Shown piece by piece: positions 41,395 through 42,126 of a stretch of 64,000 nt of DNA; positions within the stretch are counted from its first letter, which is position 1; each line of letters begins with the position of its first letter. The notes beneath the pieces are model-generated. The model searched no databases and was not told where the DNA came from. It saw only the letters and a list, made by a program, of their open reading frames with translations. Both the position numbers and the translations under genes were made by a program. This stretch comes from Leptospiria bacterium (GTDB lineage: Bacteria > Spirochaetota > Leptospiria > Turneriellales > CBDBES01), in contig CBDHCY010000005.1 in assembly GCA_965261485.1 (NCBI GenBank), positions 333,813 through 397,812 on the forward strand, in the 5' to 3' direction.

Positions 41395-41868
41395 CCGACC
41401 GCGAGTCACGAATGGCGATTCGCTCGCTAGGCGAAGGGCACGCCGACCGATAATCGCGAGTGATGCTTCGCTCTCTGAGCGAAGTGTCGACCGCCGTTAC
41501 GAGTGGCGATTCGCTCTCTGAGCGAAGTGTCGACCGCCGTTACGAGTGGCGATTCGCTCGCTAGGCGAAGGGCACGCCGACCGACAGTCGCTAGTGATGC
41601 TTCGCTCTCTGAGCGAAGGGCACGCCGACCGACAGTCGCGAGTGATGCACTCGCTGAGCGAGAGTGCCGACCCGACAGTCGCTAGTGATGCTTCGCTCTC
41701 TGGGCGGAGAGTGACGACCCGACAGTCGCTAGTGATGCTTCGCTCTCTGGGCGGAGAGTCGACGATCGCCAATCGCGAGTGATGCTTTGATCGCTGGGCG
41801 AAGGGCACGCCGACCGCCGTCACGAGTGATGCACTCGCTGGGCGGAGAGTGCCCGACCGCCCGACAGT
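41395..41868 (+). repeat. GC-rich tandem array of ~46-bp hairpin-containing units, 10 units
   Basis: Same unit family and orientation as 36448-37622. Anchor spacings are 43-48 bp. Starts about 5 bp after the stop codon. Confidence 0.95.
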
Positions 41869-42080
41869 AACTAAAGGTGTTTGACAGGCTGAGGCTTTAA
41901 AGTTAGGCTCACCCATGCCGACATCGACTCTCGAAAAACAACAAAACATTTTTGAGACTAGCCTTGAGTCAGAAAGTTCTCAAAATTACTCTTTTACTAG
42001 TGACATTTGCCACTAGCACGAGTATTTGCTCGAAAAAATAGATAAACTTGCTTTCAAAGCATTGAACGACCTCTCAAACA

Positions 42081-42126
42081 GGCGATTTGCTCAAAGAGCG
42101 AAGAGTGCCCCGACCGCCAGTTACGG
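42081..42126 (+). repeat. isolated single unit of the 46-bp GC-rich repeat family
   Basis: GGCGATTTGCTCAAAGAGCGAAGAGTGCCCCGACCGCCAGTTACGG has the hairpin (TTGCTC-AAA-GAGCGA) and the GTGCC..GACCGCCAGT tail. Lies about 210 bp beyond array 2. Confidence 0.7.

Follow-up and report, generated by a model that had tools for sequence, protein, structure and literature searches.

A GC-rich non-coding minisatellite related to the 3′ end of a lipoprotein-like gene family in a Leptospira-like bacterium

The ten tandem units that follow a 672-aa lipoprotein-like gene in the 64-kb stretch of DNA analysed here (the window) are a lineage-specific, non-coding minisatellite, which is unstable and is not a new kind of genetic system. 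Judged by sequence comparison, the unit derives from, or is common to, the 3′ end of the gene that precedes it. Across the loci that we compared, more distant relatives have one or two units behind a gene, and arrays of 6–26 units are specific to the clade of the window. By the same comparison, turnover is much faster in the arrays than in the sequence flanking them.

The arrays and the orphan unit

The unit is present at these places in the window:

36452..37621, plus strand: array 1, 26 units of the same family as array 2, 3′ of the cassette-1 gene
41409..41866, plus strand: array 2, ten tandem units of 43–48 bp, ~62% GC, found by TRF and a unit profile
42080..42123, plus strand: orphan unit, the positional equivalent of the first unit in the six-unit distal array of the related locus L229

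In array 2, TRF reported a 47-bp period at 41419-41832 (9.0 copies, score 316) and a 43-bp sub-repeat at 41467-41570 with 95% matching. The unit profile placed unit starts at 41409, 41457, 41500, 41543, 41591, 41639, 41682, 41729, 41776 and 41823, with E-values from 2e-6 to 1e-13, and so reproduced exactly the spacings listed in the initial annotation (48, 43, 43, 48, 48, 43, 47, 47, 47). That annotation had also assigned the two arrays to one family in one orientation, with 26 and 10 units. A single profile finds both arrays with those numbers, and all units, including the orphan, lie on the plus strand in direct orientation. The orphan is a partial match at 42086-42121 (E=2.7e-5); it is the most divergent unit, and its closest relative is the array-2 unit at 41500. 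Over the remaining ~62 kb of the window, the profile gave just two chance-level matches (E>4). Allowing up to 2 mismatches, we located the 16-mer GAGTGATGCTTYGMTC at 27 sites, always within the two arrays, against a shuffle expectation of 0.09.

Sub-variants containing GGCGATTCGCTC are found in the array-2 units at 41409, 41500 and 41543, as had been described. Internal duplication is likewise confirmed by the 43-bp pair in array 2 and by an exact two-unit recurrence in array 1 (units 37229/37458, 229 bp apart). The 43-mer pair had been quoted as a repeat, and it does form the 95% sub-repeat at 41467-41570; the copies are exact over ~29 + 21 nt only, with the second diverging after GCTC.

The arrays are 61–62% GC against a background of ~33% in the window outside the rRNA/cassette region, and GC already climbs in the conserved C-terminal coding part of the gene. 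The high GC presumably reflects recombination or hairpin stability.

Regular spacing, a palindrome and minus-strand open frames of 150–210 aa through the arrays might suggest a CRISPR-like or small-RNA array, or repetitive coding sequence, and we consider this exceedingly improbable. An alignment of 74 distinct units covers the 46-bp period in every column with no hypervariable block, so there are no unique spacers, and no cas-like proteins are encoded nearby, where the neighbours are a GLUG-like gene, an Rpn gene, an epimerase gene, a small-ORF remnant and the 5S rRNA gene. The CRISPR identity was rejected on both counts. A coding repeat was rejected because the period (42–48 bp) is not a multiple of 3; TGA, TAG and TAA also occur in the units, and the minus-strand ORFs have no Pfam hit and are an expected consequence of GC-rich DNA. 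Integron attC sites were also set aside, since a gene can be followed by as many as 26 tandem units and the 8 ORFs scanned between 29296 and 44852 included none of an integrase family. A G-quadruplex was discounted on reading the sequence, in which each unit has one G-run only. Head-to-tail copies far beyond chance, a copy-number difference and non-coding content place array 2 among minisatellites, or VNTRs.

Searches of wider collections gave no relatives of the unit. Scanning genome contigs for three copies of GAGTGATG with gaps yielded no match resembling it, a metagenome-contig scan with two copies of AGTGATGCTYT returned 110 loci of which none was unit-related by profile, a scan of viral contigs gave 0 hits, and blastn against plasmids and phages found no match. 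The genome-contig scan did show that imperfect heptamer/octamer microsatellites of the (GAGTGAT)n or (GGAGTGAT)n type are frequent in unrelated phyla (Chloroflexota, Bacteroidota, Verrucomicrobiota and cyanobacteria).

Gene ends, related loci and the interval before the orphan

The genes and rRNA landmarks around the arrays are as follows:

31061-32592: 16S rRNA gene
34429-36414: cassette-1 gene, 661 aa, paralogue of the cassette-2 gene
37733..38782, plus strand: Rpn/YhgA-like gene (Transposase_31, PD-(D/E)XK), between array 1 and cassette 2
39372..41390, plus strand: cassette-2 gene (gene 2), 672 aa, paralogue of 34429-36414 with 43% identity and conserved N- and C-termini
41363..41408, plus strand: proto-unit, spanning the final 9 codons, the stop and the next 18 nt, which aligns GGTGCTCTGATC..GGGCAACGATAA..CGACCGACCGCGAGTCA with the unit
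42233..42349, plus strand: 5S rRNA gene, ~110 bp downstream of the orphan

The cassette-2 protein contains GGLVG/NSYFSGSG repeats with a weak GLUG motif match and, by eye, a probable lipoprotein signal (LLFCIVFGASC). Together with the weak GLUG hit, the signal peptide and lipobox read by eye suggest that the protein may be located at the surface. A PDB sequence search with the same protein gave no match. It has 563 homologues, many of them paralogues from few genomes, including contigs of 2.13 Mb and 1.92 Mb; one related contig encodes a protein of the Leptospira Lsa36 Pfam family. The 16S and 5S genes lie 9.6 kb apart, separated by an epimerase gene on the minus strand, the Rpn gene and both cassettes, and no 23S rRNA gene is found anywhere in the 64-kb window. 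The 16S sequence seems to be of a spirochaete or Leptospira type, and unlinked rRNA genes are a known trait of Leptospira. Three more tandem GLUG-repeat lipoprotein-like genes, with 90-bp coding repeats and a different C-terminus, occupy 12431-20795 of the window. Each ends in a classic hairpin-plus-T terminator, and none has a 46-bp unit behind it.

Unit homology covers the last ~35–45 nt of the GLUG-repeat lipoprotein-like gene: the gene end GGTGCTCTGATC..GGGCAACGATAA and the ~18 nt that follow align with GATGCTTTGATC..GGGCGGAGAG..CGACCGCCAGTCA of the unit. For the cassette-1 gene end, the alignment scored 31 against 11.5 ± 2.2 for shuffled sequences (0/2000 reached it), and two gene-end/unit pairs from the related locus L118 each scored 23 against 11.4 ± 2.0–2.1 (0/2000 and 1/2000). 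The gene-2 end gave a weaker match (p = 0.023, shuffles). One L118 unit copy retains GGGCAAAGATAA, reading G-Q-R-stop. Sequence of the gene-end type also turns up inside or beside arrays: unit 6 of array L229a contains ...GAGCAATGATAG..., the flank of cassette c in locus L117 contains ...CTGGGCAACGATCATAAGCC..., and the CAATTGA spacer, which is of the post-stop type, interrupts the L117 arrays. These are the traces expected of unequal exchange between gene end and array. The ~46-bp unit is best read as a tandem copy of the 3′ end of the gene family, made up of roughly the last 9 codons, the stop and a few bases downstream.

In some cassettes an AT-rich (CAATTGA)-type heptamer run, for example GATTCAATTGAAAATTGAGAATTGACAATTG, lies between the stop codon and the first unit (window 36415-36451; L117 8582-8625; L230 6662-6706; L232 ~9020-9060). 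It is missing from cassette 2 and recurs inside the L117 arrays.

We compared the window with six related loci and counted profile matches at E ≤ 0.03:

L117, close: three cassettes, each in the order gene, array, Rpn gene, octamer tract; ~22, 10 and 20 profile hits
L229, close, its gene 85% identical to gene 2: 10-unit array, 88-aa small ORF, 6-unit array
L118, L230 and L232, more distant, proteins ~45–50% identical: 1–2 units directly 3′ of the stop, sometimes behind a (CAATTGA)n spacer
L231, most distant: no units

All hits in L117, L118, L229, L230 and L232 lay immediately 3′ of a family gene or of the small ORF and had its orientation. Units were present behind 13/15 family-gene ends in the six loci and absent behind one L230 gene and the L231 gene. 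This distribution marks the unit as a conserved feature of the 3′ flank that was amplified in the window's clade; its restriction to the gene family rests on ~110 kb of sequence. The unit blocks CGAGTGATGC, C.CTGGGCGA and GACCGA are kept beside genes whose proteins are only ~45–50% identical, in distant relatives where the intergenic DNA around the blocks is not alignable. Such conservation across distant genomes suggests a sequence-specific role of the single unit, which would lie outside the explanation that we favour for the arrays.

The stretch between array 2 and the orphan holds two further features:

41881..41909, plus strand: promoter-like TTGACA-17 nt-TAGGCT, 5′ of the small-ORF remnant, seen by eye
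41915..42065, plus strand: decayed copy of a small coiled-coil/TM gene, recognised by comparison with L229 (88 aa)

It had been proposed that 41869-42080 might be an insertion that split an older array, and this did not hold: the 212 bp are the remnant of a small conserved gene, and the insertion was rejected on that ground. Window 41863-41993 matches L229 12377-12508 at 91%, 42023-42050 matches L229 12510-12537, and 42049-42079 matches L229 12679-12709. The L229 counterpart is an intact 88-aa ORF with a coiled coil and a C-terminal TM segment. Its family numbers 34 homologues and includes several paralogues per genome; Pfam gave an XhlA hit for one member. The window copy of the ORF starts at 41915 and meets a stop after 33 codons, caused by a 29-bp palindromic insertion at 41994-42022, and 141 bp are deleted relative to L229; by sequence this copy is a pseudogene. 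The insertion carries an inverted repeat (CTAGTG...CACTAG) and is absent from L229. The TTGACA-17 nt-TAGGCT arrangement, which falls below the threshold of the promoter scan tool, is conserved in L229 and L232.

The orphan starts immediately 3′ of a conserved ...CCTCTCAAAC, where L229 has six units. The initial annotation had left open that the orphan might be a chance GC-rich match; this position, that of the first unit of the L229 six-unit array, shows that it is a true unit. L232 has the gene, a single unit and then three small ORFs in tandem. With the small gene between two arrays in L229 and after a single unit in L232, the interval is an ancestral component of the module and not an insertion. 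The three L232 ORFs (9155-10520) are XhlA-like; each comes with a TTGACA promoter-like site of its own and has a different repeated element of ~60 bp behind it (…GATAAGAAATTAGGGTGTTTATAAAAACACTG…).

The position of the units, directly 3′ of the stop codon and co-oriented with the gene, could point to an element of the mRNA 3′-UTR, a reading that we think fairly unlikely. The unit would form a stem-loop in the upstream gene's transcript and act as a stabiliser, a processing site or a termination/insulation signal, and an array would multiply the effect, shielding the Rpn gene, the small ORF and the 5S rRNA gene from read-through. Stems at alignment columns 1-6/13-18 and 10-17/21-28 are ~85% paired, compared with 25–63% in slid controls; G-T wobble pairs, which can form on the plus strand alone, make up ~25% of the cells; and the cassette genes are without the canonical hairpin-plus-T-run terminator of the window's other GLUG genes. 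However, the two hand-specified stems gave no compensatory covariation beyond column shuffles, RNAalifold gave no consensus structure, and the mean unit MFE was -13.6 kcal/mol against -12.6 ± 3.4 kcal/mol for shuffles. The better folding of the plus strand over the minus strand comes from G-T pairs and may merely reflect G>C skew. No U-tract follows the stems, and no T-run terminator lies in or after the arrays, for which reason an intrinsic terminator was rejected. The L230 units are without the 5′ arm of the main stem, the transcript would be G-rich and hence not rut-like, and there was no match to an Rfam family: Rfam 15, at the gathering threshold and also at E ≤ 5, returned rRNA and tRNA only, with the 5S rRNA as the sole match in 36300-42400.

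Turnover of the arrays and mosaic cassettes

The initial annotation had suggested comparing array lengths among strains. What we compared were related contigs and not strains of a single species. The stretch 33946-39400 of the window aligns collinearly with cassette b of L117 (10836-15340) at 81–82% identity, and the two have 26 and ~10 units, respectively; at the orphan position there is 1 unit in the window and 6 in L229. Array 2 and L229a have 10 units each and flanks that are 85–91% identical, and the match between their units is partial and non-collinear: W2-1 and W2-4 match L229a-3 (100% and 94%), W2-5 matches L229a-9 (90%), and order is not kept.

Similarity within arrays (0.40–0.55) is barely above that between arrays (0.38–0.53), and about half of the units have their nearest relative in another array or genome. 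The arrays therefore draw on a common pool of variants, by common ancestry and/or exchange. The earlier claim that the arrays expand and contract independently stands as far as unstable length is concerned; because variants are shared across arrays and genomes, full independence does not. Growth and shrinkage would probably occur by unequal crossing-over or replication slippage. The orphan may be the leftover, or the minimal form, of a second array behind the small downstream gene, produced by contraction in the window or by expansion in L229.

Alternatively, the arrays may have this same origin, by tandem duplication of the gene's 3′ end, and be selfish or neutral minisatellites, without a role and kept by slippage, with cassette shuffling needing only the conserved coding ends. 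We regard this as possible and give it appreciable weight, although we think it unlikely on the whole. It fits the lack of covariation and the folding of units no better than shuffles, a copy number that varies widely down to a single decayed unit without obvious consequence, and the fact that the adjoining small gene is itself decaying. It fits poorly with unit blocks conserved across genomes in which the flanking genes are ~45–50% identical, and with arrays kept at every cassette of the clade.

The cassettes themselves are mosaic. The following block is shared by their 5′ ends:

38875..39497, plus strand: 5′ block of cassette 2, with 91% identity to 33946-34554 over 626 bp, containing a (ACAGAACT)n tract (38989-39138), a terminator-like hairpin (39178-39193) and the gene's first ~125 nt

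Compared with one another, the two window cassettes are 91% identical in the 5′ block, 63% in their centres and ~69% at their 3′ ends. Beyond ~39490, the gene-2 body aligns at 81–85% with L117 gene a and with the gene of L229, and those two genes have a different, ordinary signal-peptide start. The cassette-2 5′ block (38800-39497) instead matches the leaders of L117 b and c at 79–84%. The junction in gene 2 lies near 39490, so that the leader and the first ~40 codons come from the octamer-type 5′ block (compare L229 10001-10100 and L117 6650-6700). One type of body is found with two 3′ flanks, namely array plus Rpn gene (L117a) or array plus small ORF (L229 and the window). These differing pairings indicate that flanks and bodies were reassorted, with borders near the signal peptide and near the gene end or array. 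On present alignments, the parts of this modular cassette have clearly been reassorted between genomes.

The (ACAGAACT) tract has 17 copies before the cassette-1 gene and 19 before the cassette-2 gene. The tracts sit in a short leader ORF (34055-34467 and 38985-39412) that starts with an SD-like GGAAAG, ATG and MNRTTELQNY..., and a terminator-like hairpin plus T-run follows (34232-34247 and 39178-39193). Of the three phases that the repeat number can set, one gives a leader ORF of 132–147 aa that continues through the hairpin and terminates 38 nt into the main gene; with the remaining two, the ORF closes just past the tract. Both window cassettes are now in a short phase. The octamer leader looks like a slipped-strand on/off switch acting through leader translation.

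The window's succession of array and Rpn gene is seen three times in L117, and the stretch between array and Rpn gene is 95–96% conserved. The Rpn gene carries in-frame 24-bp repeats (×7) in its C-terminal part (window 38510-38687), which give a Yae1_N-like Pfam hit; the L117 counterparts of these repeats are called as an ORF of their own, 90 aa long.

That conserved stretch, the position-specific conservation of the unit (G6 is invariant, and C1, A3, T5 and G9 are at least 90% conserved) and the presence of large arrays in the clade whose cassettes carry Rpn genes might suggest that the conserved 10-mers (CGAGTGATGC every ~46 bp) are bound by a DNA-binding protein, by analogy with iterons or sopC. 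The candidate would be the adjacent Rpn nuclease, with its C-terminal HTH, which would trigger breaks or organise the locus. We hold this to be very unlikely, since the L229 locus, with its arrays of 10 and 6 units, contains no Rpn gene, single units occur in genomes whose loci are without Rpn genes, and no partition or replication genes are nearby.

A more elaborate scheme of programmed variation, in which Rpn nuclease, octamer leader, lipoprotein gene and 46-bp array form a repeating module with the arrays as its working part, seems to us quite unlikely. The PD-(D/E)XK nuclease would cut at or beside the arrays, repair through sister arrays and the conserved leader would swap gene bodies between cassettes, and the octamer tract would turn each cassette on or off independently, leaving the arrays as amplified landing pads or as scars of swaps. 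If true, this would be a mechanism of antigenic variation that has not been described for Rpn proteins or for Leptospira-like bacteria.

We tentatively favour a simpler role, at somewhat less than an even chance, in which the array is an amplified 3′-flank element that would serve as shared homology at the downstream border of the cassette. The arrays would be a block of shared homology and a probable recombination hot spot there and, together with the conserved 5′ leader block, would allow gene bodies and flanks to reassort among paralogues. The arrays are ~70–78% identical to one another, which makes them a poor RecA substrate except over short exact stretches, and the conserved C-terminal coding region alone could supply the 3′ homology.

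Nearest known systems and significance

Among published repeats, the MLVA loci of L. interrogans are intergenic VNTRs with units of 36–47 bp in 0–52 copies (PMC1185519). Like array 2, they are non-coding and head-to-tail, with a similar unit size and variable copy number (PMC1185519). A match to their motifs was rejected: size is alike and the sequences are unrelated, the L. interrogans motifs being AT-rich (PMC1185519) and the array-2 unit ~62% GC in a genome of ~33% GC. The array-2 unit differs further in its derivation from the 3′ end of the neighbouring gene and in its restriction to sites behind one gene family or its small companion gene. The nearest known kind is the bacterial intergenic VNTR, and the closest functional analogy is with repeat-flanked cassettes of surface antigens.

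The vsp/vlp DHS elements of Borrelia hermsii and the 70-bp repeats of VSG genes in Trypanosoma brucei are extragenic repeats that border variable surface-protein genes. The resemblance lies in a repeat element that borders members of a lipoprotein-like family, with a conserved 5′ element and bodies reassorted relative to flanks. Unlike the DHS systems, the window has no evident single expression site with a silent archive, since both cassettes carry the same complete leader and 5′ block, and here a tandem array lies downstream of the gene.

REP/BIME elements of enterobacteria are GC-rich imperfect palindromes that follow stop codons, are sometimes clustered and can influence the 3′ ends of mRNAs. 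REPs are scattered over the whole genome, frequently with alternating orientation, and are associated with RAYT transposases. The present units share the GC richness and the position behind stop codons, and contain a putative imperfect palindrome. They differ in being all direct, family-restricted (in the window and six loci) and without structural support beyond composition. The sopC centromere of the F plasmid has 12 repeats of 43 bp. As in sopC and iterons, our arrays consist of tandem units of ~43–46 bp that each have a short inverted repeat, but they have no partition or replication genes beside them and are present many times on a chromosome.

The array is a hypervariable locus of typing grade and a likely cause of assembly breaks in this uncultured Leptospira-like lineage. 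It marks a modular cassette that consists of an octamer-tract leader, a variable gene body, the array, and an Rpn nuclease gene or a small membrane-protein gene. If the arrays are the downstream recombination border, the system would be a compact bacterial analogue of the repeat-flanked antigen cassettes of relapsing-fever Borrelia and trypanosomes, and would offer a natural substrate for Rpn nucleases.
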